Assembly: GCA_963666275.2 (NCBI GenBank)
Contig: CAXXOA010000001.1
Span: 1,632,001-1,696,000 of the forward strand
Source of the DNA: Oceanispirochaeta sp.
GTDB lineage: Bacteria; Spirochaetota; Spirochaetia; DSM-2461
DNA length: 64,000 bases
Direction of reading: 5' to 3'
Under the pieces are notes generated by a model that saw only the letters and a program-made list of their open reading frames with translations, was not told where the DNA came from and did not search any database. Of this stretch, positions 3,345-45,802 are shown piece after piece. The first letter of the stretch is position 1; every line of letters starts with the position of its first letter. The translations under genes were made by a program, and so were the position numbers.

Positions 3345-4301
3345 ATGAAACGGATTATGCGCCTGGCAGTTGCCTTGAATTTTACCACTACAGAAGGGGC
3401 TTCTCTCCCCGATGAGATAGACTTGCTTCCTTCGGGAAAGACCGTTAAAGGATTGGACGGCAGAAGCTGGACCAACCCGGGAAACGACAAGATCATCGAC
3501 TTCTTCAAATCCAGGGGAACCCAGCTTCCCGTCGATATCAACCACTCAACAGAAATCAAAGCTCTTTCGGGCGATCCCAGCCCCGCCCAGGGATGGATCA
3601 CCGAACTCTATGAAAAAGACGGAAGCCTCAAGGGAAAGGTCGCCTGGAACGCCAGTGCGGAAAGTGAAGTCGGCGGAGGCCGGTATAAGTATATATCCCC
3701 CGCGTTCGTCTACAACAAACAGGGAATTATCCGGGGGATTAAATCCGCCGGTCTGGTCAATCACCCGAACCTTTCGGAGTTGGCCGCATTAAACAACGAA
3801 TCATCCGGTCAAGATGAGGGAGGAAATATGAAGAAGATTGCGGAAGCCCTGGGGCTGCCGGAGGATGCCACGGAAGACCAGATCCTGACGGCTTTGAACT
3901 CTATGAAAGAGAAAAACAAAGTCGCTCTGAATATGGCCGATTACATACCCCGTGCGGATTATGATCTGGCCCTGAACCGGGCACAGGATGCAGAGCAGAA
4001 ACTCAAAACCAGAGATGAAGAAGAGTTTAAAACTGCTTTGAATGCGGAAATCGATAAAGCTGTGGAAGCCGGAAAAATTGCACCGGCCAGCCGCTCTTTT
4101 TACGAAGAGACGGTTATCGATTCCGAAGGGCTTGAGAAGTTCAAAAAGTTTGCCGAATCGGCTCCCCAGGTTGTAGCTGCCAACAGCGAACATACCGACA
4201 AAAAGCCTTCGGGTGAAAAAGTGGCATTGAATGCCGAGGAAAAAGCCCTGGCCGATCAGTTCGGATTCACGGAAGAAGAGGCCCTTGCGGTCTACAAGTA
4301 A
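3345..4301 (+). CDS. Mu-like protease I / scaffold
   Basis: LPVDINHSTE, PAQGWI, YKYISPAF, SAGLVNHPNL, repeated ALN motifs; internal RBS and ATG (MKKIAEALGL) fit a scaffold Z. Confidence 0.9.
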   Translation: MKRIMRLAVALNFTTTEGASLPDEIDLLPSGKTVKGLDGRSWTNPGNDKIIDFFKSRGTQLPVDINHSTEIKALSGDPSPAQGWITELYEKDGSLKGKVAWNASAESEVGGGRYKYISPAFVYNKQGIIRGIKSAGLVNHPNLSELAALNNESSGQDEGGNMKKIAEALGLPEDATEDQILTALNSMKEKNKVALNMADYIPRADYDLALNRAQDAEQKLKTRDEEEFKTALNAEIDKAVEAGKIAPASRSFYEETVIDSEGLEKFKKFAESAPQVVAANSEHTDKKPSGEKVALNAEEKALADQFGFTEEEALAVYK

Positions 4302-32500: not shown

Positions 32501-33793
32501 TCACAAACTTCGTTTGCTGCTCGCCCATGCAACCGGGGGCTGGTCGGAAGCAAGCTTCCTGCTCGCCCATGCTACCGGGGCTTCCTTGAGGCGGGTGGTG
32601 TAGCAGGGGGAGAGGTGTTCCCGGCGCATTCCCCAGTCCGCCGTGGCTTCGCAGGCTGCCAGATGGACAGTGCGGCGGCCGAATTTCCGGTTCAGCCGGT
32701 CCACCGTATCCATTATAAGCTTTTCCCGGGGGTCTCTGCTGAAAAAAAGGTCCCCCTGGGATCCGGCGGCCGGCTCTATGCCGAAAAGGAGAACCGTGGT
32801 CCGCCAGTAGGCCAGTCCCGGTTCGTAGAGCCGGGTGAGGAGCTCCGAAGCGGTTTTGACAATATGGGGCAGATAGTCTGTGGGGGATACCTTCCGGGAG
32901 GCGCTCCTCAGGCCGTCTCCCCGGAACATGGAGGATTCCAGCGTCACGCTCACAAGGCTTGTGGTGCACTCCTGGCCCCGGAGCTTCTCTACCGCCAGTT
33001 CGGTATAGCTGGAGACCGCCTCTTTCAGAAGGGAGAGCTCTCTGACGGGATTGCCGAACTGCCGGGCGCTTATAATTCCCTTGCGGGGATCCGGCGCCAG
33101 TTTCATTTCGTTCATGGGCACTCCCGCCAGTTCTCTCTGGAGCCGCCATCCCACAATGGTCATCCTTTTGCGGATCTCCCATTCGGGAATCCTTACAAAG
33201 TCTTCGGCCGTTTCGATGCCCCGGCTTTTAAGCTGCTCCGCAAAGGCCCGTCCCACCCCCCATATATTGTCCACAGGGGTCTCTCTGCGGGCCCTGGCGA
33301 TCTTTTCCGGCGTATCGAGGATAAGGATGCCTCCGCTGTTTTTGGCCAGCCTCTGGGCCACCTTGGCCAGGGCCTTGGTGGGGCCTGCTCCCATAGATGT
33401 GGGAATAAAGGTCTGCTTCTGTATCCGCTCCCGGATCAGGGCTCCGTACTCCTCCAGATTTCCGATCCCCTTCAGGTCGATAAAGGCCTCGTCTATGGAG
33501 TAGACCTCCACATGGGGAGAGAACTCCCTGAGGGTTTCCATCACCCGCAGGGAGATATCCTGATAGAGGGAGTAGTTGGAGCTGAAGTAGGCTATGCAGT
33601 GCTCTCTGATAACAGGCATGGCCTCGCTGAGCCGCTGCCCCCGCTTCAGCCCCAGGGCCTTGGCTTCGGAGCTCAGGGCGATGAGCCAGTGGTCGTTGTT
33701 GGAGAGCACCACAATGGGAACATCCTTCAGATCGGGCCGGAAGATCCTCTCGCAGGAGGCATAGAAGCTTTTGCAGTCCACCAGGCCGATCAT
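32501..33793 (-). CDS. umuC: Y-family DNA polymerase V subunit UmuC-like (DUF4113 C-terminus)
   Basis: VDCKSFYASCE, VVLSNND, YSIDEAF, WGMRREHLSPCYTT. Confidence 0.92.
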   Translation of the reverse strand: MIGLVDCKSFYASCERIFRPDLKDVPIVVLSNNDHWLIALSSEAKALGLKRGQRLSEAMPVIREHCIAYFSSNYSLYQDISLRVMETLREFSPHVEVYSIDEAFIDLKGIGNLEEYGALIRERIQKQTFIPTSMGAGPTKALAKVAQRLAKNSGGILILDTPEKIARARRETPVDNIWGVGRAFAEQLKSRGIETAEDFVRIPEWEIRKRMTIVGWRLQRELAGVPMNEMKLAPDPRKGIISARQFGNPVRELSLLKEAVSSYTELAVEKLRGQECTTSLVSVTLESSMFRGDGLRSASRKVSPTDYLPHIVKTASELLTRLYEPGLAYWRTTVLLFGIEPAAGSQGDLFFSRDPREKLIMDTVDRLNRKFGRRTVHLAACEATADWGMRREHLSPCYTTRLKEAPVAWASRKLASDQPPVAWASSKRSL

Positions 33794-34161
33794 GAGGGAA
33801 GCATCCTCAAAAGCCGGGTGACCACGCCGAAGATCCGGACATCTTCCTCCCTTTCGGGGAAAAACCGCTCGCCTCCCGATGAGACAACCATCTCTCCCCG
33901 GAACATTTCAAGCCTGCCCAGACAGAATTCGCCCTCAAGCACCGCCACAACCAGCTTTCCCGCCGAAGGATGGCAGGAGCTGTCTATGATAAGGTAGTCT
34001 CCCTCTTTTATGCCCTCATCGGCAAATCCGCTGCCCTGAAGGGTGAACACATACATGGCATGGGGCTTGGGAAAAAGGATGCCCGTCCAGTCTGTTTCAT
34101 CGTCTATATACGCCTCGGCGGGGGAGCCGAATCCGGTGGCGCGTACCATGGTCTTTTTCAT
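33790..34161 (-). CDS. umuD: UmuD-like S24 protein lacking the catalytic dyad
   Basis: TGFGSPA, GDYLIID, VVAVLEGEF, IFGVV; overlaps umuC start. Confidence 0.82.
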   Translation of the reverse strand: MKKTMVRATGFGSPAEAYIDDETDWTGILFPKPHAMYVFTLQGSGFADEGIKEGDYLIIDSSCHPSAGKLVVAVLEGEFCLGRLEMFRGEMVVSSGGERFFPEREEDVRIFGVVTRLLRMLPS

Positions 34162-37184: not shown

Positions 37185-37640
37185 ATTGAATAAATAATAC
37201 CAATCAGAACCCCCGGCGGCTGAGCGGAGCCTACCAGATTGAATAAATAACACTAATGAGAATACCCGGCGGCTGAGCGGAACCAACCAGATTTATTAAA
37301 TAACACTAATGAGAACCCCCGGCGGCTGAGCGGAGCCGAAGCCCAATTGTTTAGATGAAGAACCCAACCTTTACACCATAAGACTCTTAATATTCTCGTT
37401 CTAAAGAAAACATATATTTGTTCTGTTAAACACCCGGCTTCGGCTCCGCTCAGCCACCGCTGGTTCTGGGAAGTATTATTTGACTGGAGTGGATTATTTG
37501 CTCCGCTCAGCCACCGTTGTTTCTGGGAGAATTATTTCAATGGAATAGATTATTGGCTCCGCTCAGCCACCGCTGGTTCTGGGAAGTATTAGTTCTTTGG
37601 GGTAGATTATTGGCTCCGCTCAGTCGCCACTGGTTCTGGT
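37185..37640. repeat. Repeat module A: 3 x 53-bp direct units, 92-bp spacer, 4 x 56-57-bp inverted units
   Basis: GGCTGAGCGG at 37218/37271/37324; CTCCGCTCAG at 37444/37501/37557/37614. Confidence 0.92.
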
Positions 37641-37855
37641 GACTATTGGACTCAAAAGAATCATAAGATTTTCAAACTGGTTCTTAGGTCTCTTCAGAAG
37701 ATTTCTGGACTACGATTGCTGCCAGGAAATCCTTTATAATCGGAAAATTCATTCCGGCGGAAAAAAATATGATTCTGTCTTAACTTGGGCGCAGCACCTG
37801 ACCGTTTTACAAGTTCCGGAAGGGGGAATCCGTAGTAGAGCAGGAGAGCTCAAAA

Positions 37856-38716
37856 TTATGGGGATTCAATTGATGCGTTTCGGGCTAATCGAATACCAGG
37901 GCCTGCATCTATACCGAACTCAAACAATCCTGCACGATCATAAGGAGTGAAGAAAAACTGCTCAGATGTTCTGGCCGATCCTCCACGTGCAATACGATAT
38001 CTCTTTTCTTTTAATTTTAAATAATCTTCTAAAGAGGGACCTGTAGGATTAACTAGTAGAATTGACGGATTATTTGGATATTCTAATGATAAATCCCAAC
38101 ACCATTCATCAATGTTTCCACTCATATCATACAATCCAAGTTCATTGGCTTTTTTAGAGCCAACCGAATGCGTAGTATCATCAGAATTCCAATCAGTCCA
38201 AGCGACCTCATTAAGATCATTACTGCCTGAGTATTCATATCCTTTGGAAAGATTCCCGCCACGAGCAGCAAATTCCCACTCTGCATCTGTTGGCAATCGA
38301 TATCCATTTGCTTCTCTTATCCATTCAACATCTTCACCGTTAATCTTGTAGCATTCTTCTAGACCATATTTTCTACTGACCCAGTTTGCATATTCAATAG
38401 CTAATATCCATTTAACTCCAATAGGAGAATCAGGATATAGACTTTCTCTTCTCATATCATAATATTCTCCCTGCCATTTATAAGAAGTTCCTGTTTCTTT
38501 AAGAAATTGCTCCCATTGTTCGACTGTTGTTTCATACTTTGATATATAATAGCTGTCCAATTTTATTCTTACAGATTGAGTTGAAAATCCCTCCTTTCCT
38601 AAGGTAAACTCTCCACCCTCGACAAGAACCATATCTTGGTCGATAGTCAATTTCTCAGCAGAGCAGGCAGTTAAAAATGTAGCTAAAACTAAAGTAATAA
38701 CAAATCTAATTTTCAT
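37856..38716 (-). CDS. FGE/SUMF1-domain lipoprotein (probably non-catalytic)
   Basis: Lipobox FLTAC; YRLPTDAEWEFAARGG, NELGLYDMSGN..EWCWD, ARGGS without FGE cysteines. Confidence 0.88.
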   Translation of the reverse strand: MKIRFVITLVLATFLTACSAEKLTIDQDMVLVEGGEFTLGKEGFSTQSVRIKLDSYYISKYETTVEQWEQFLKETGTSYKWQGEYYDMRRESLYPDSPIGVKWILAIEYANWVSRKYGLEECYKINGEDVEWIREANGYRLPTDAEWEFAARGGNLSKGYEYSGSNDLNEVAWTDWNSDDTTHSVGSKKANELGLYDMSGNIDEWCWDLSLEYPNNPSILLVNPTGPSLEDYLKLKEKRYRIARGGSARTSEQFFFTPYDRAGLFEFGIDAGPGIRLARNASIESP

Positions 38717-38727
38717 GCTATTCTCCA

Positions 38728-41700
38728 TTAGAAGTCCATCCATGATAAAGTCCTATAGCGGTATGAATTGATATCGCTCCATGACAATTGGTTCGGAAAT
38801 GGGTCAATTGGATCATAGCCATTTCGATACATATAATGGTGCTGTTCTCCTTTGTTCTTACCATATATACCAACATCAGCCATTGTATAGTCAGAATTCA
38901 AATAGCTTTCTAAACTGCTGAAATCTGATCCTTTCCCAAGGTATTGTGAAGAGTTAAATTCTGTTCCTAAAAGCTTCAGGTATGAATCATATTCTTTTAC
39001 GAGTCCATCATCTCTAATCAATCTATTATCATTTGCGGTCTTTAACGCATCCCCAATCATATCAAGACTAATAGAAGGATCTCTTAACTGATAAAGGTTC
39101 ACTGGAACGGTTGCATAGCAAAGTGCATTTGTACCGAAGCCAGCCTCCTTTTCTATCTCCATCTGAGAAAATAGATGTTCTGTTGCTGTTCCAGCTTCAA
39201 ATCTATTGGAAAAATCAGTTGTGGAAGAAAGCATATCAGAAAGATATTTTTCTCTATCAGTCGGTTTAGCTCCATATTGCTCAGCAACATTCATCATTCT
39301 CATCTGATCCAAGATTGAATCCATATTACCATCATTTCGCCACGCATCAACAAACATACGATCATAGTCCAAAGCTGCGCCCATTCTATCGGACCACTCG
39401 CCAGATAAGTTAATAGAGATATGGTCTCCTTCATCATCTAGAAAATGGCCATCTCTGAAAGTCTCTGCTGATCCTTGAGCTACTAGCATTTCATTATTTA
39501 GTCGTGATTTCTCTTCAGGTGATAATTCTAAGCCAAGGATTTTCTGAAGATGTTCAGTTCTACTTCCGCCAACGAAGTGCCCTATTTCATGCTCTTCACC
39601 GTTCTCATCATCATAGAAAACACCGCCACGACCATCATCGTTTAACGTTAATGAACCATCAGGGTTTTCTATCAACTTCCAATAATCCGCGGAAGAATCA
39701 TACCCCCCCAAAGCCTGATCAACCTCACTCCAGTCTCCAGTACTAACAGCCGTCAGATAGGCATTGGCTTCCTTCTGGTTGAAACCGTTTAAAGAGTTCA
39801 TTCCATATGTCTGGGCCAAGGTTGCTCCTATGCTCATATGGGCCAATGCGGCTTTCATGGTTTCTTCCTGCTGCCCGAACTCTCCCGAATCCACACCGTC
39901 CCGGAAGGCTTCATGGCTCATCAGTACGGCCAGATCCAGACTGCCTTTGCCGTCCATGTTCAAATCAATGATCCTTTTTCCATCGGAACCGACTGTAGTA
40001 TACCCATCATAATCCTGACCTTTTCCAGTTGTAAATGCGGCATCGCCGTTTATGATATCATCATACAGAGCGCTTGTCTCGTTCATTTCTGCGGAGTAGA
40101 GGGTGCGCATCCCCGCATAAAGTTGTCTGTCTACTCCGGACTGACGGATAGCTTTGTTCTGTTTAAAAACTTCCATACCGGCCATGGCCTTTTGCAGTGC
40201 TCCCACGCTGACATCGGTACCGCCAGTTCCCACATTCAACAGGCTTCTGTCTCCGCCCAGATTCAGTTCCAGCAGTCCCGATTGAACCAGGCCGTTTTTG
40301 CCCTCTATGCCGAACATTCCGAAGTTCATTACGTTCAATGTGGTTTCTCCGGTCATGCCGTATTGGATAGCAGAGGAGGTGAGACCACCGGCCAGGCCAG
40401 AGAGGGCGCTGAAATTGGCTTTTGTCTCATTGATATAACCGAAGGATGCCAGATCCATAGTGCTGGTGACTCCCGCACCGGCCATGCTGCTTATGTAGGA
40501 GGTGCTGGTATTGTCCCAGCTTGTCATGGTATTGAAAGTGTTCCAGTTGAAACTGTCTCCTTCGAAGGCCTGAATAGCGGCGGAGCTGTAGGTATTGGCT
40601 GCTGTGGAAGCACCAGCCAGGGCTGTATCGGTTACTACTTCACCGAATTGACCGGCAGCAGTATCACCGAATGTCAGTAGCTGAGAACTATCCAAGCCCG
40701 ATGAAGCAGCACCAATGCCATAACCGGCAGCTGATACTACCGCCTTCTTTCCGAAAGATCCCCAAGCCTGGCCCGCATCTGTCCCGTTTTGAACATCCAG
40801 AGCTGTAAAAAGGGCATCGTCCATCATACCTACCATAAGAGCCGCACCGGGGCCTAAAAAGGCGCTGGCTGTAATGCTAACGGCTATATCCGTCACACTT
40901 CTGATTGTGGGAGCCCCGATAAAACCGTCGGAACTGCCGTCGTTATCAGCATCATCATCCCAGAGTTTCTGGTTGTAGGTGGGAGTATTGACAGTCGCCA
41001 GGCCCCTGTAGAGACGGGCCTGCTGGATGCTGAAATCTTTGTAGATCCGGCCCATTTCTCCATAACCTTCGGTTTTCACTTTTTCTGGCTTATCCTCTCT
41101 CATCTCAGGGCCGTAGCCGACGTAATAGTTGAATAAGCCTATTGTCTTTGTATGTTTTCCTACATCTTGAACAACATCGTTTTCATCGGTATAGGATTTA
41201 TTGTATTGAGCTGATGCTTTAAAGGCATCTTCCTGGGCTTTCAGGTGGGCCAGAAACTCTTTATCCAGTCCTGTCCCGTTATCCGCTTCTTTGTCTTTCT
41301 GGGGGCCGAATATTATAGTTAGATAGCGGTTCATATTTTCACGAGCTTTATTCACACGGGCCTGAATCAGGACGCTGTTGAGCTTTTCCAAAGTATTGAT
41401 AGAAAGATCGACCCCGTGGTTAAAAGCCGGGGCGGTATAGTACTTATAGGCTTCTATTTTGTGATCCTCCATCTCAATACCGCCGAATACGGAAGAATCG
41501 ATTATAACTGACCTTTTATACTGTTTACCCTGTCGACTGTAACCGCCGGCATACAATGTACTGTCTACACTATCATCAACGCTTTCATTGGCGTTTTCAA
41601 TACTATCATCAACAGACTCTTCCGTTTCTTTCATCATATCAAGCATTTTGTACGCCTGGGCCAGAGCCAGGGACTTCTGCAATTCTTCCTTCAGATCCCG

Positions 41701-41889
41701 CTGTTGCTCTTCCAGGCCCAGTATCTGGCTGTCCGTTTCCGGCAGTGAGGGGAGAGCCGTGGCCAGAATGGCATTGTGATGACCCGTCCGGCTTGTTAAA
41801 GTCTTTATTGAATCCAGAAGGCTGTAAATGGTGGTCCCATCAAGTGCATCGGAAACAATATCGTGAACATCCCCGGGAGACGTCGTCAT
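38728..41889 (-). CDS. Large, probably 5'-truncated polymorphic-toxin-like protein
   Basis: 1053 aa, no RBS or signal peptide, Gly/Ala/Ser-rich middle, AT-rich C-terminal domain with Cys-His-Asp-like motif. Confidence 0.6.
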   Translation of the reverse strand: MTTSPGDVHDIVSDALDGTTIYSLLDSIKTLTSRTGHHNAILATALPSLPETDSQILGLEEQQRDLKEELQKSLALAQAYKMLDMMKETEESVDDSIENANESVDDSVDSTLYAGGYSRQGKQYKRSVIIDSSVFGGIEMEDHKIEAYKYYTAPAFNHGVDLSINTLEKLNSVLIQARVNKARENMNRYLTIIFGPQKDKEADNGTGLDKEFLAHLKAQEDAFKASAQYNKSYTDENDVVQDVGKHTKTIGLFNYYVGYGPEMREDKPEKVKTEGYGEMGRIYKDFSIQQARLYRGLATVNTPTYNQKLWDDDADNDGSSDGFIGAPTIRSVTDIAVSITASAFLGPGAALMVGMMDDALFTALDVQNGTDAGQAWGSFGKKAVVSAAGYGIGAASSGLDSSQLLTFGDTAAGQFGEVVTDTALAGASTAANTYSSAAIQAFEGDSFNWNTFNTMTSWDNTSTSYISSMAGAGVTSTMDLASFGYINETKANFSALSGLAGGLTSSAIQYGMTGETTLNVMNFGMFGIEGKNGLVQSGLLELNLGGDRSLLNVGTGGTDVSVGALQKAMAGMEVFKQNKAIRQSGVDRQLYAGMRTLYSAEMNETSALYDDIINGDAAFTTGKGQDYDGYTTVGSDGKRIIDLNMDGKGSLDLAVLMSHEAFRDGVDSGEFGQQEETMKAALAHMSIGATLAQTYGMNSLNGFNQKEANAYLTAVSTGDWSEVDQALGGYDSSADYWKLIENPDGSLTLNDDGRGGVFYDDENGEEHEIGHFVGGSRTEHLQKILGLELSPEEKSRLNNEMLVAQGSAETFRDGHFLDDEGDHISINLSGEWSDRMGAALDYDRMFVDAWRNDGNMDSILDQMRMMNVAEQYGAKPTDREKYLSDMLSSTTDFSNRFEAGTATEHLFSQMEIEKEAGFGTNALCYATVPVNLYQLRDPSISLDMIGDALKTANDNRLIRDDGLVKEYDSYLKLLGTEFNSSQYLGKGSDFSSLESYLNSDYTMADVGIYGKNKGEQHHYMYRNGYDPIDPFPNQLSWSDINSYRYRTLSWMDF

Positions 41890-41915
41890 ATCCGGAATTA
41901 GGGTGAAAAGAACAT

Positions 41916-42281
41916 TTATTGTTTGACCATAAAGAAATTATCTTCAACCATAATTCCATTATTTAAAATGGTACCAATATAATTGAAACCATCTGAGACA
42001 AAAGAAATTTCCTCTCCTAAAATTGTATATGATCCCATTTCAAACGCTATTGTTCCAGCGCTATTTTCCTTGTATCGATCCACGGAATAGCTGAACATCC
42101 CCTCAGTTTCGTTTTTATTCATTAAGCCAATTACAGCAATATCTCTATATTCCTCTGTTTCTGTAACACAAGTGTACAGAATCGGCTCACCCGATTGCCC
42201 ATTGGAATTTGAGCTATTTGTTGTAGAACAAGATGTGAGAAACAAATAAATAGATACGACAAGAATGAAGAATTTTTTCAT
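41916..42281 (-). CDS. Hypothetical lipoprotein
   Basis: MKKFFILVVSIYLFLTSC lipobox; AT-rich; RBS GGAAGG. Confidence 0.8.
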   Translation of the reverse strand: MKKFFILVVSIYLFLTSCSTTNSSNSNGQSGEPILYTCVTETEEYRDIAVIGLMNKNETEGMFSYSVDRYKENSAGTIAFEMGSYTILGEEISFVSDGFNYIGTILNNGIMVEDNFFMVKQ

Positions 42282-42389
42282 TAATACCTTCCTTATTATG
42301 GTTTACATTTATATAATAAATAAACGTTCATCTACTTTATATGATTTATAAATGAACTAGTCAATCCTTTTAGAAGAATAGCTGCTACT

Positions 42390-42855
42390 AAAGAATAAAA
42401 CTATCCAGAACCCCCGTTGGCTGAGCGGAGCCAACCATATTGAACAAATAAAACTAATGAGAATCCCCGGCGGTTGAGCGGAGCCAACCATATTGAACCA
42501 ATAAACCTAATCAGAACCCCCGGTGGCTGAGCGGAGCCGAAGCCCAATTGTTTATGAGAAGAACCATCCTTTACACCATAAGACTCTTAAAATTCTCGTA
42601 CTAAAGAAAACATATATATTATTCTATTGAACTGTGGCTTCGGCTCCGCTCAGCCACCGCTGGTTCTGGGAAGTATTAGTTCTTTGGGGTAGATTATTGG
42701 CTCCGCTTAGCTGTAGCTGTTTCTGGATGTAATATTTCTCTGGAGAGGATTAATATCACCGAAGTCGAAGTTGCCGTTAACAAATAATAAAACTAATGAG
42801 AACCCCCGTTGGCTGAGCGGAGCCGAAGCCCGGCTCAGTCGCCGCTGGTCCCGGA
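42390..42855. repeat. Repeat module B (same architecture as A)
   Basis: 3 direct units, 91-bp spacer near-identical to A, 24-bp perfect IR 42521-42544/42636-42659, linker, further unit. Confidence 0.92.
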
Positions 42856-42899
42856 AAGAATGAATTCTATAAAGGGAAATCCATAGAGTTTTCCTCAAA

Positions 42900-43841
42900 T
42901 TAGGATTCGAGCATGTATTTCATAAGCTCATACATATGTGGCGCTTCGTAATCCAGGACCCGCCTGAAAGAGGGTTCCTCCATATCGCGCCCCAGGGATT
43001 GGGCTTTCTCAAGATATTCCAGGGAAAGAGGGAGGTCCTCCAAGCTGATACTGTACTGGAACAGGTTGAGCGCAGCAGCCACTTTGTCACCCAAATTAGC
43101 TTGCGGGTCTTCCAAAATCGGCAGGAGAATTTCTGTTACAGCCTTGTCGTTGCTCTCAAGTTCATCCCTGGTATAACAATCGGATAGGTTGATTTTTGAA
43201 TTATTATCATCAGAGTTTTCCAATTGCTTATAATAGGCGGTATCAGACAGGTCTGAGGCTTTAACCATGGATCCCATGGAAAAAATGACACCGTTGGTGA
43301 ACCAGTTGAAATTGGGCATTATCGCACCATTAAATACTGTGATTTTCCTTTTACCTGTTGCTTTCTCAGTTGATACAAGGCAGTTGGCAACAATTTCCAG
43401 AATATATTGTGATCCCTCGGGTGCCGCCTGAGAAGGGGTATGGAGGGAAGAATACAAGACAAGGTTTTCACCGTCTTTGAAGTAACTTCCCAGGGCTGTC
43501 ATTCTGTAGATATTGGGATCATCCGTTATCGGTATATTGTTGAACAGTCCATCCAACAGCTCCTTTTTTGCCTGGAGCGGCAGTGTTTCATGCAGTTCAA
43601 ATTGCTCCATAATTGAGTATAACCACACAATTTTACCGAAATCCCGTATAGTTACAGTCCCGTTTTCCGGTACAAAACGATCCAATACTCTTATTTCCTG
43701 TGGAGGAATTTCCGCTTTACTAAGACTTTCATCGCTGAAAACCCATTTCTGAGTTGCCGCATCCGAGTTGGTAGTACAGGAAGGGAATACTAACATCAGT
43801 AGTAAGGTAATAAGGAAAAGCCCTATTGTTTTTTTATTCAT
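42900..43841 (-). CDS. Hypothetical lipoprotein
   Basis: MNKKTIGLFLITLLLMLVFPSC lipobox; RBS AGGAG. Confidence 0.8.
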   Translation of the reverse strand: MNKKTIGLFLITLLLMLVFPSCTTNSDAATQKWVFSDESLSKAEIPPQEIRVLDRFVPENGTVTIRDFGKIVWLYSIMEQFELHETLPLQAKKELLDGLFNNIPITDDPNIYRMTALGSYFKDGENLVLYSSLHTPSQAAPEGSQYILEIVANCLVSTEKATGKRKITVFNGAIMPNFNWFTNGVIFSMGSMVKASDLSDTAYYKQLENSDDNNSKINLSDCYTRDELESNDKAVTEILLPILEDPQANLGDKVAAALNLFQYSISLEDLPLSLEYLEKAQSLGRDMEEPSFRRVLDYEAPHMYELMKYMLES

Positions 43842-43916
43842 TTCTTTCTCCTTTGAATTATGTTGAATACCCTATAAACACGTGGTTTGATCCCTGTGAT
43901 TCAAAAAAATTATGAA

Positions 43917-44710
43917 ATGTTCTGAGAAGTACCATCCTCTCCACCAAAGCACTCTTAAAATATTCTCCCTAATGTACAGTTGTGTTTGTTATGTTAAACT
44001 CTGGCTTCGGCTCCGCTCAGCCACCGCTGGTTCTGGGGAGAATTATTTCTTTGGAGTAGATTATTGGCTCCGCTCAGCCACCGCTGGTTCTGGGGAGAAT
44101 TATTTCACTGGTGTCGATTATTGGCTCCGCTTAGACGCAGCTTTTTCTGGATGTCATATTTCTCTGGAGAGGAATAATGTCAGCGAGGTCGCAATTGCCG
44201 ATTACAAATAATTAAACCTAACTAGATATCCCAAGTCGTTGAGCGGAACCAACCAAATTGAACAAATAACACTAATTAGAACCCACCGTGGCTGAGCGGA
44301 TGGTTGCTGAACGAAGTCGAAGTAGCCGAAATACCCATCCCGGAATAAATAACACTAATGAGAAATGACGGTGGCTGAGCGGATGGTTGCTGAGCGAAGT
44401 CGAAGTAGCCGAAATACCCATCCCGGAATAAATAACACTAATTAGAACCCACCGTGGCTGAGCGGATGGTTGCTGAGCGAAGTCGAAGTAGCCGAAATGC
44501 CCATCCCGGAATAAATAACACTAATGAGAAATGACGGTGGCTGAGCGGATGGTTGCTGAGCGAAGTCGAAGTAGCCGAAATGCCCATCCCGGAATAAATA
44601 ACACTAATGAGAAATGACGGTGGCTGAGCGGAGCCGAAGCCCAATTGTTTTTGAGAAGAACCATCCTCTCCACCAAAACACTCTAAAAATGTTCTTTCTA
44701 ATGTACAGAT
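43917..44710. repeat. Repeat module C: spacer, 3 inverted units, linker, 83-bp tandem array, spacer
   Basis: GCTGAGCGGA at 44291/44374/44457/44540/44623 (period 83). Confidence 0.93.
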
Positions 44711-44757
44711 TTGACTCTACTAAGCAAAATTGAAGTAAAACAAACATAGTTTCAGTT

Positions 44758-45141
44758 ATGAAATATATGAAACAGAAACAGCGGGAACTGAAATCCGGAT
44801 ACATGTATATTCTGATCTGCGGAGACGGTTCCTATTATGTGGGCAGTACAAATAATCTAAAAATGAGAATGGATCAGCACAATAGGGGAGAAGGATCGAA
44901 TTACACCAGTAAACGTCTCCCTGTAAAGCTTGTTTATAAGGAATGGTATGAATCTGTAGGACATGCTTACCTGCGGGAAAAACAGATTCAGAAATGGAAC
45001 AGGGAAAAAAAGGAAGCTCTGATCAAAAAGAACCTGAAATCTTTGCATACACATGCCGCCTGCCGGAATAAATCCCACTCCCGCAACTTCCGTAAAGAAA
45101 AAACAAAAAGAACTCTCGGCAGAAACAGATTGATTAAATAA
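44758..45141 (+). CDS. GIY-YIG nuclease (UPF0213/YhbQ-like)
   Basis: YMYILICGDGSYYVGSTNNL..R..QH, LPVKLVY.E, REKQIQKW.REKKEALI. Confidence 0.92.
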   Translation: MKYMKQKQRELKSGYMYILICGDGSYYVGSTNNLKMRMDQHNRGEGSNYTSKRLPVKLVYKEWYESVGHAYLREKQIQKWNREKKEALIKKNLKSLHTHAACRNKSHSRNFRKEKTKRTLGRNRLIK

Positions 45142-45210
45142 CACTAATTAGAACACCCGGTGGCTGAGCGGATGGTTGCTGAGCGAAGTCGAAGTAGCCG
45201 AAGCCCAATT
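45128..45210 (+). repeat. Single nested repeat unit downstream of GIY-YIG gene
   Basis: AAATAACACTAATTAGAAC...GGCTGAGCGGATGGTTGCTGAGCGAAGTCGAAGTAGCCGAAGCC. Confidence 0.9.
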
Positions 45211-45328
45211 CTTTAACAAAAGCCCCAAAATTTTTTTCCCATTTTGAATCACCATCCCATTCCTCTGCGTAAAAGATTTACAAACCAGGAAAACCTGAAA
45301 GTGCAACTATTACAAAGGAATCTATTAT

Positions 45329-45802
45329 ATGAAAAAAAATAGGCATCTGCGGTCTGGAGGTGTTCTTGTACTGCTCCTGCTCACATCCTGTTCATCCCTG
45401 AAGATCTCTCCCCGTTCCACCCAGACCATCATCCAGCCGGCCTGGGAGGAGACCCGCAGTTCCTACAGCTACATTCCCGGCGTGATTCTGGTGGAAACCA
45501 ATATCTACGATCAGGAGATCCGGCGTAACGGGTCGGAGAACCTGGACCTGATACTGGACCGGCTGAATGCGGAAAACACGGAACATCCCTCCCGGAAGGC
45601 CTCGGTGGCCCTGTATCTCAGGGAGTATTCCTTTATGAAAGATTACAAACCCCTGAAAACCCTGTCTGTCAAAATTGTGGTGGAAGATGAACTGGGAACT
45701 CCCCTGGGCAGCTATTTTTACAGCACCGAATCTACAGACAGTTTTTTCTCCTCATCCTATCTGTACAGTCGGATTGAAAAAGGGATGGCAAAGCTTTTCT
45801 GA
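45329..45802 (+). CDS. Hypothetical lipoprotein, first gene of export operon
   Basis: LLLLTSC lipobox; stop overlaps TolC start. Confidence 0.8.
   Translation: MKKNRHLRSGGVLVLLLLTSCSSLKISPRSTQTIIQPAWEETRSSYSYIPGVILVETNIYDQEIRRNGSENLDLILDRLNAENTEHPSRKASVALYLREYSFMKDYKPLKTLSVKIVVEDELGTPLGSYFYSTESTDSFFSSSYLYSRIEKGMAKLF

Follow-up and report, generated by a model that had tools for sequence, protein, structure and literature searches.

The first description of site-specific single-stranded DNA (ssDNA) nucleases dates from 2025 and concerned a single clade; the main text of that report (Chenal et al. 2025, PMC11893778) already features a small GIY-YIG gene with copies of its own hairpin on either side, the Ssn/NTS system. 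Its nuclease, SsnA, binds the hairpin as ssDNA only, cuts a few nucleotides (nt) upstream of it and ignores RNA; the only role demonstrated for it in vivo is a lowering of the integration of transforming DNA. NTS clusters flank membrane-protein genes, and the authors, who compare Ssn/NTS with repetitive extragenic palindromic (REP) sequences and REP-associated tyrosine transposases (RAYTs), propose a domesticated REP/RAYT-like origin. We analyzed a stretch of 64,000 nt from the genome of Oceanispirochaeta sp. (hereafter the window; contig CAXXOA010000001.1, positions 1,632,001 to 1,696,000), in which the gene for a small GIY-YIG nuclease is embedded in a hairpin repeat family of its own. The original prediction, made from the letters of the window, proposed such a nuclease-repeat pair as a candidate non-RAYT REP/REPIN-like system, a concept that, as Ssn/NTS shows, REP/RAYT comparison included, is not new. 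The pairing of this gene with this repeat is nonetheless well supported as real and widespread across several bacterial phyla.

The nuclease gene and the repeat unit

The nuclease contains PF01541 as its sole domain match (about residues 12–105), with Y17, Y27, G29, R37, H41, E74 and W80 all intact. Y17, Y27 and E74 are invariant across 36 aligned rows, and the catalytic residues as a set are invariant or nearly so. The structure model (predicted local distance difference test, pLDDT, 88) shows the GIY-YIG fold, and the nearest solved structures, both by sequence (E 2e-20) and by fold, are those of UPF0213/YazA/YhbQ proteins (PDB 1zg2 and 1ywl), although the protein does not share a branch with YazA (see below). 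A genome-wide profile search found a second GIY-YIG match, of UvrC size, and no others. The profile of the nuclease group scores 178 clusters (50% identity) at E ≤ 1e-30. As had been noticed from the letters, the gene is flanked by repeat units on both sides: its TAA stop (45139–45141) falls within the AAATAA of the downstream unit's flank, 17 bp 5' of the hairpin, and its basic C-terminal tail is encoded partly by that flank.

The repeat core, GCTGAGCGGAGCC, occurs in the window 16 times with at most one mismatch, always within 37219–44635, compared to a mean of 0.04 and a maximum of 1 in 100 shuffles. A relaxed core pattern is noisy (126 matches versus 74–109 in shuffles), and cluster members were therefore chosen by their shared flanks. 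The relaxed listing comprises 28 cores, 7 at 37218–37625, 6 at 42419–42811, 13 at 44022–44622 and 2 at 45162–45177, in line with the more than 20 cores in four clusters, and none elsewhere in the window, that were originally claimed; the claimed array periods of 53 bp (+) and 56–57 bp (-) hold as well. The A/T-rich flank upstream of the core is shared as predicted, with the spacing corrected from AAATAA-N7-AGAAC (1 case) to AAATAA-N8-AGAAC (17 cases).

Each unit is a hairpin of about 24 nt that consists of a CGGT tag (-8 to -5), a variable 4-bp stem, the segment GAG-C-GNA-G-Y-CGA and a second stem arm that complements the first. Simple, complete hairpins number only 7; the majority of array members comprise just the 5' half, which ends at GAGCGGAGCC, and a complete hairpin is seen only at the last position of each array. 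The stem covaries, using C-G, G-C, A-T and T-A pairs: in units picked by the core alone, stem pairs 2–4 are Watson-Crick at frequencies of 0.85/0.89/0.69 in the Oceanispirochaeta genome (0.65/0.35/0.36 when shuffled) and 0.91/0.89/0.84 in 228 units from homologue flanks (shuffled, 0.51/0.35/0.34). The invariant GA opposite GA, together with the GNA loop, suggests tandem sheared G·A pairs and a mini-hairpin, a likely fold that only one strand would form. According to the text of PMC13037366, GCGNAGC is an ultra-stable DNA mini-hairpin that conventional models do not account for. The unit matches no Rfam family, and a promoter/terminator scan gave matches at chance level only.

Genomes and loci used for comparison carry G and L labels, G000 being the genome of the window itself. 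Counted over this whole genome, there are 70 units at 32 loci, and the core is found 74 times versus once for a reversed-core control. Sixty of the 70 units lie outside crude open reading frames (ORFs), though these ORFs span about 89% of the genome. The repeat loci show no bias towards low-GC islands (median GC 0.494 versus 0.483, p 0.06).

Conservation of the gene-repeat pairing

As predicted, homologous GIY-YIG genes are flanked by related repeats. The motif is present within 300–350 bp of the gene at 78 of 80 distinct homologue loci (a count that excludes L007, a 47-aa fragment, L013–L015, which represent the same match as L012, and the duplicate L053), with a density of 6.5 per kb near the gene versus 0.2 per kb farther away, and on both sides of the gene at 32 of the 60 loci with full flanks. 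Among spirochaetes, excluding the window's own locus (L131), all 29 homologue loci carry the motif, 14 of 26 on both sides. The two surveys combined give 107 flanked loci of 109, in unrelated gene contexts; those loci that bear a name come from Flavobacteriaceae, Bacteroidales, Crocinitomicaceae and Leptospira, and alphaproteobacterial members also carry the motif. The nearest units are inverted (+-) in 34 of 56 loci, the ++ arrangement of the window being in the minority (13 of 56), and the first unit upstream of the gene points in the sense direction at 64 of 77 loci. Of 138 cluster representatives, 65 have translated repeat words in their terminal extensions, compared to a mean of 2.1 and a maximum of 7 in shuffles.

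As controls we used 42 weaker-scoring GIY-YIG loci of the same phylum. The motif accompanies only 1 of 24 YazA-like genes, so the repeats are not equally dense around unrelated genes. One of 8 Ssn-like loci has a weak match to the motif, and 3 of the 8 have instead the SRM pattern typical of Ssn. All 9 weaker-scoring members of the nuclease group carry the motif, and it is absent from the locus of the ambiguous protein L165.

Copy number and loop subtypes

Of 38 genomes in the order, two carry the gene, with 46 and 25 copies of the repeat, compared to 5, 1, 1 or 0 in the rest. Among 300 genomes of the phylum, 31 bear the gene at a score of at least 124 bits, the next score being 108. At least 10 copies of the short or long loop subtype are present in 19 of these 31 genomes versus 19 of the 269 that lack a close clade member (counted by hand, for these two subtypes only, in genomes that are not independent). 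The expectation that repeat abundance would track the gene is thus borne out by this difference but not by the repeat-rich genomes that lack the gene.

The three loop subtypes, short, mini and long, follow the protein tree, with 7 changes versus 41.8 in shuffles (108-row tree), and the abundant subtype of a genome is usually the one that flanks its gene. Long/short copies number 379/2 in G316, 33/1 in G072, 25/0 in G300, 0/51 in G058, 0/40 in G225 and 1/63 in G000; mixed cases are G203 (35/34), G210 (4/21, with the long form flanking the gene) and G252. G316, with its 379 long-loop copies in a 3.3-Mb genome, a nuclease gene and no Y1 transposase match, is the best natural case for study.

Nesting and mobility

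At the orthologous site of the congener G011, the flanking genes are 166 bp apart versus 1,487 bp here, and no unit was found in 13.5 kb. The G011 nuclease gene (67% identical) is located elsewhere, downstream of a GAPDH-like gene, and is likewise flanked by units; the matching site in G000 is occupied by a RAYT-like gene, together with a single decayed copy of a nested unit. In G009, a congener without the nuclease gene, a lone unit (L219:11800–11835), possibly a footprint, is found in the intergenic stretch upstream of the same lipoprotein/TolC operon.

Units are frequently nested inside the loops of other units, and 18 of 21 distinct nested strings, from 9 sources, add 22–25 nt with a stem unlike that of the host unit. 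In the window, the insert, an exact 24-nt unit (-8 to +4), follows the GGA loop, any overlap being of 1 nt at most. Both the nesting and the 83-bp-period array that it forms were overlooked in the initial reading of the sequence. Contigs from the same sample in Logan, which are for that reason not independent, show no differing letters over 42300–45500, and their depth of 36–38 over the 83-bp array, versus about 8, fits about 4 copies.

Proposed mechanism and alternative explanations

We lean, if only slightly, towards the view that the enzyme recognizes and cuts its own hairpin and has a role in its spread, as may be judged from Ssn and from the anatomy of the repeat. The nuclease would bind its ~24-nt hairpin on ssDNA and cut at or just 5' of it, with a likely SsnA-like specificity for ssDNA and for the site. 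Repair of the cuts, the likely engine of spread, would duplicate, nest and move the repeats and the repeat-gene-repeat cassette. Strand rejoining is not known for any GIY-YIG enzyme, so that the completion of each event would fall to template switching or recombination by the host. Of the original proposal that the nuclease may recognize, cut or spread the repeats, the underlying pairing is strongly supported, recognition and cutting can be reasonably argued from Ssn, and spread is unproven, with 19 of the 269 genomes lacking a close clade member still holding at least 10 copies.

Several further observations weigh against this view. Three viral loci (2 distinct, 45–52% identical) are without any unit, and the genomes surveyed are related, which makes counts across them non-independent. 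Twelve of the 31 gene-bearing genomes, five of them from Leptospiraceae, have fewer than 10 copies of the two scanned subtypes, and the mini subtype, scanned in 5 genomes only, is for the most part local, with copy numbers of 4, 8 and 12 in G052, G121 and G164. Conversely, G070 (136 copies) and G310 (50) have only UvrC-sized GIY-YIG matches, and the sole small match in G297 (67 copies, one contig) and in G098 (43) is YazA-like and unflanked. The concordance of tree and subtype is by itself no proof of recognition, because the gene and its flanking hairpins travel together. Standard DNA folding gives the hairpin no support (z 0.25–1.81). Nesting junctions vary by 1–3 nt, so that the nested forms could represent loop expansion rather than insertion, and partial duplications show no more than a moderate polarity (among 284 units, 49 with the 5' arm upstream and 33 with the 3' arm downstream).

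A bolder form of the same view would make this a second, HUH-independent class of REP replicator, in which the widespread GIY-YIG group reads a non-canonical sheared-G·A hairpin and itself inserts ~24-nt units preferentially into unit loops, each branch with its own subtype, Ssn having arisen within the group by way of the GTCA-tagged subgroup discussed below. We advance it tentatively, as possible rather than probable.

It seems rather unlikely that the hairpin is cut, SsnA-like, by a domesticated filter that acts on incoming or recombining ssDNA and does nothing else, the repeats being spread by slippage, recombination and horizontal transfer. A filter is the only in vivo role shown for SsnA in the main text of PMC11893778, repeats are abundant in some genomes without the gene, the local 53-, 57- and 83-bp arrays resemble tandem amplification, and variable cassettes of lipoprotein and toxin-like genes are bordered by the repeats here, much as NTS clusters flank membrane-protein genes. 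What a filter alone leaves unexplained is the match between the abundant subtype and the flanks of the resident gene, as well as the nested units whose stems differ from those of their hosts.

HUH enzymes both cut and rejoin DNA, and a RAYT/IS200-like HUH transposase could mobilize the hairpins in trans, with the GIY-YIG gene as cargo between units. The window itself has no RAYT-like Y1 genes, as first reported, but the genome has 7 (L211–L217, 124–181 aa); about 250 bp upstream of one of these, L214 (G000:C1:509560–510700), lies a nested unit that has decayed. We give this explanation little credence, because intact units are found near none of these 7 genes and none of 13 Y1 genes in other repeat-rich genomes, neither G316 nor G310 has a Y1 transposase match, cargo would not be expected to be confined to one protein group, and L214, the single Y1 locus examined over its full length, has a repeat of another kind, non-palindromic GGACGGAGGAAG, in inverted arrays on its two sides.

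An equally slight chance attaches to action at the RNA level, with the hairpins serving as mRNA stabilizers or autoregulation operators that the protein binds without cutting. The predominance of units outside ORFs (60 of 70) and of sense-oriented nearest upstream units (64 of 77) would suit such a role; the conservation of the catalytic residues, the lack of an Rfam match, the GNA triloop, described as a DNA-type motif, and the indifference of SsnA to RNA in the published main text all speak against it. Finally, the idea that the gene landed by chance in a repeat-rich variable region, for which one could cite the variability of this island relative to G011, has a negligible probability and is refuted by the flanking of 107 of 109 homologue loci in unrelated contexts, versus 1 of 24 YazA-like controls.

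If it cuts its hairpin, the nuclease group would add a second large set of site-specific ssDNA nucleases with a different, structure-rich target, whose freely varying stem and loop would be useful for programmable ssDNA tools. The question of what maintains REP-like repeats without a RAYT becomes testable: the three natural pairings of subtype and enzyme form a built-in specificity matrix, and from the nested units the ends of the mobile segment can be predicted at about -8 to +4 around the core.

Organization of the repeat island

The features of the island are listed in Table 1. Two spacers, S1 and S2, are interspersed with the units in the manner of bacterial interspersed mosaic elements (BIMEs), and the GIY-YIG gene occupies the position after S1 where the other clusters have an inverted array. 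Further copies of S1 were found at about 37345–37435, 42548–42604 and 43920–43979 and at C1:2257214–2257272.

Table 1. Coordinates of the repeat clusters, spacers and genes of the island in the window
Feature	Position	Strand	Remarks
Cluster 1	37185..37640		three + units (53 bp), S1, four - units (56–57 bp)
FGE-sulfatase-domain lipoprotein gene	37856..38743	-	directly after the 1053-aa ORF; GC 0.37
1053-aa ORF	38728..41889	-	no Pfam/NCBIfam match; 46% identity with the C-terminal region of a 3100-aa gene (C1:2247142–2256444)
Cluster 2	42385..42850		three + units (53 bp), S1, two - units (57 bp), S2, one + unit
Inverted array	44002..44140	-	3 units, 57-bp period, first one complete
Spacer S2	44140..44236	+	between divergent units; second copy at 42716–42793, 86% identical
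Upstream array	44237..44642	+	5' half-unit, four nested units of 83-bp period (44286–44617), complete unit (44618–44641)
Spacer S1	44645..44720	+	runs into the GIY-YIG gene
GIY-YIG nuclease gene	44758..45141	+	single domain, 127 aa; from ORF list, PF01541 63.7 bits
Downstream unit	45136..45206	+	AAATAA-N8-AGAAC flank; outer hairpin 45158–45206 with a 24-nt inner unit (45173–45196) in its loop

The 1053-aa ORF, which ends differently from its 3100-aa relative, reads like an orphan polymorphic-toxin C-terminal cassette, and the lipoprotein gene that comes after it is a possible immunity gene. After both the ORF and the 3100-aa gene (region C1:2247142–2257320 for the latter) come a lipoprotein gene and, next to it, S1 with a unit; therefore, the repeats may border exchangeable polymorphic-toxin-like cassettes. 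A separate family, the CCCCAACCCCTAAAGGG...CCTCCCCTTTAGG repeat, is present in 2 copies around the sister units in the same intergenic region (C1:2257060–2257590). Upstream of the island, the window encodes an umuC/umuD-like pair (Pfam IMS, 32501–34161) that is syntenic in G011.

Comparison with known systems

Among solved structures YazA/UPF0213 proteins are the nearest, and B. subtilis YazA is 39% identical to the window protein, but they form a separate branch (99/88, SH 98), lack the conserved Trp and, but for 1 of 24, are unflanked. Ssn and the window group form a joint branch apart from YazA (91/90; SH 98 in the larger tree) and share the motif REKQxxxW (15 of 15 and 45 of 45 sequences, versus 1 of 23 YazA-like ones). 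In the main text of PMC11893778, Ssn (SsnA, CDD cd10448), like the system described here, has a single-domain GIY-YIG gene of less than 150 aa with its own oriented, 5'-tagged hairpin on both sides, and the repeats of both systems are dispersed as well as clustered. Residues Y6, Y17 and E64 of SsnA align with Y17, Y27 and E74 of the window protein by way of the N. gonorrhoeae orthologue (L113), which is 36% identical to the window protein (blast E 2.7e-11 over 78 aa in a database of 44 sequences, borderline in a proteome); a loose criterion of Ssn homology is blast E<1e-10 to SsnA with 75% cover.

In both trees from which the clade was judged, the Ssn branch (99/99; SH 100) does not include the window protein. 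The C-terminal motif [NH]xxWxxL is present in 14 of 15 Ssn proteins versus 1 of 45 in the window group, and the window hairpin differs from that of Ssn in its CGGT tag and its internal GA/GA loop. The SRM pattern, which matched at 5 Ssn loci of a plasmid collection, is absent near all 80 homologue loci, its lone match in the window being at 4083. With its protein outside the Ssn branch and neither the Ssn C-terminal motif nor an SRM, the system is therefore presumably Ssn-like in its working but not a member of Ssn; judged by sequence, the window group appears to be sister or basal to Ssn, with a hairpin of its own. A nuclease group that leaves out Ssn needs 2 changes in both trees. In the larger tree, built without four long or short rows, Ssn stands beside a subgroup whose GAG..CGA hairpins bear SRM-like (C/T)GTCA tags (SH 87, weak), a possible bridge between the two systems. 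GAG..CGA hairpins tagged (C/T)GTCA or CCTCA were seen at L157, L170, L174, L176, L179, L100 and L115, several of whose proteins have a YTYxRRP motif. The flanks of the Ssn-branch genes L158, L160, L166, L187, L190, L122, L123 and L118 have no SRM match, and these genes may have other hairpins.

The Flavo-1 RNA (RF01705) was considered as the identity of the unit and rejected, as its covariance model does not match the units and its alignment differs in sequence. Two Flavo-1 matches, a different element from the unit, bracket the nuclease locus of a Leptospiraceae-family genome (L146:1311–1388 and 2001–2068), and Flavo-1 could in its own right be a dispersed DNA repeat. We found no description of this hairpin or pairing in the literature searched, most of it open-access, a result on which Fig. 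5a and the supplements of PMC11893778 and a figure of PMC3733652, lying outside the text covered, could bear, and no papers that contain the literal repeat strings. No paper was found that joins UPF0213/cd10456 with repeats, neither term occurring in the main text of PMC11893778; in their text, a Minerva preprint (10.64898/2026.09.22.753630) uses SsnA loci as a benchmark only, without the term "GIY", and RepRanger (PMC12306157) does not mention GIY either.

The text of PMC3733652 (Di Nocera 2013) describes CGTC-tagged REPs as orphan palindromes of Bacteroidetes, Spirochaetes and alphaproteobacteria that have no dedicated transposase. By that description, families 1–4 have a CGTC/TGTC tag, an 8–9-bp stem and a 4–5-nt loop, which sets them apart from the window repeat with its CGGT tag and GA/GA internal loop; the GTCA-tagged subgroup could overlap with them. 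REP/REPIN/BIME elements, as presented there, resemble the system described here in being extragenic tagged hairpins of 20–40 nt that form inverted doublets and mosaic arrays with alternating spacers. As in REP/RAYT, it has one copy of the enzyme gene, with units in inverted orientation on its two sides (34 of 56 loci here). Unlike REP/RAYT, it has a GIY-YIG rather than a HUH enzyme and the tag consensus C-G-G-T rather than GTAG, and its nuclease gene is patchy in distribution, occupying different loci in congeners.

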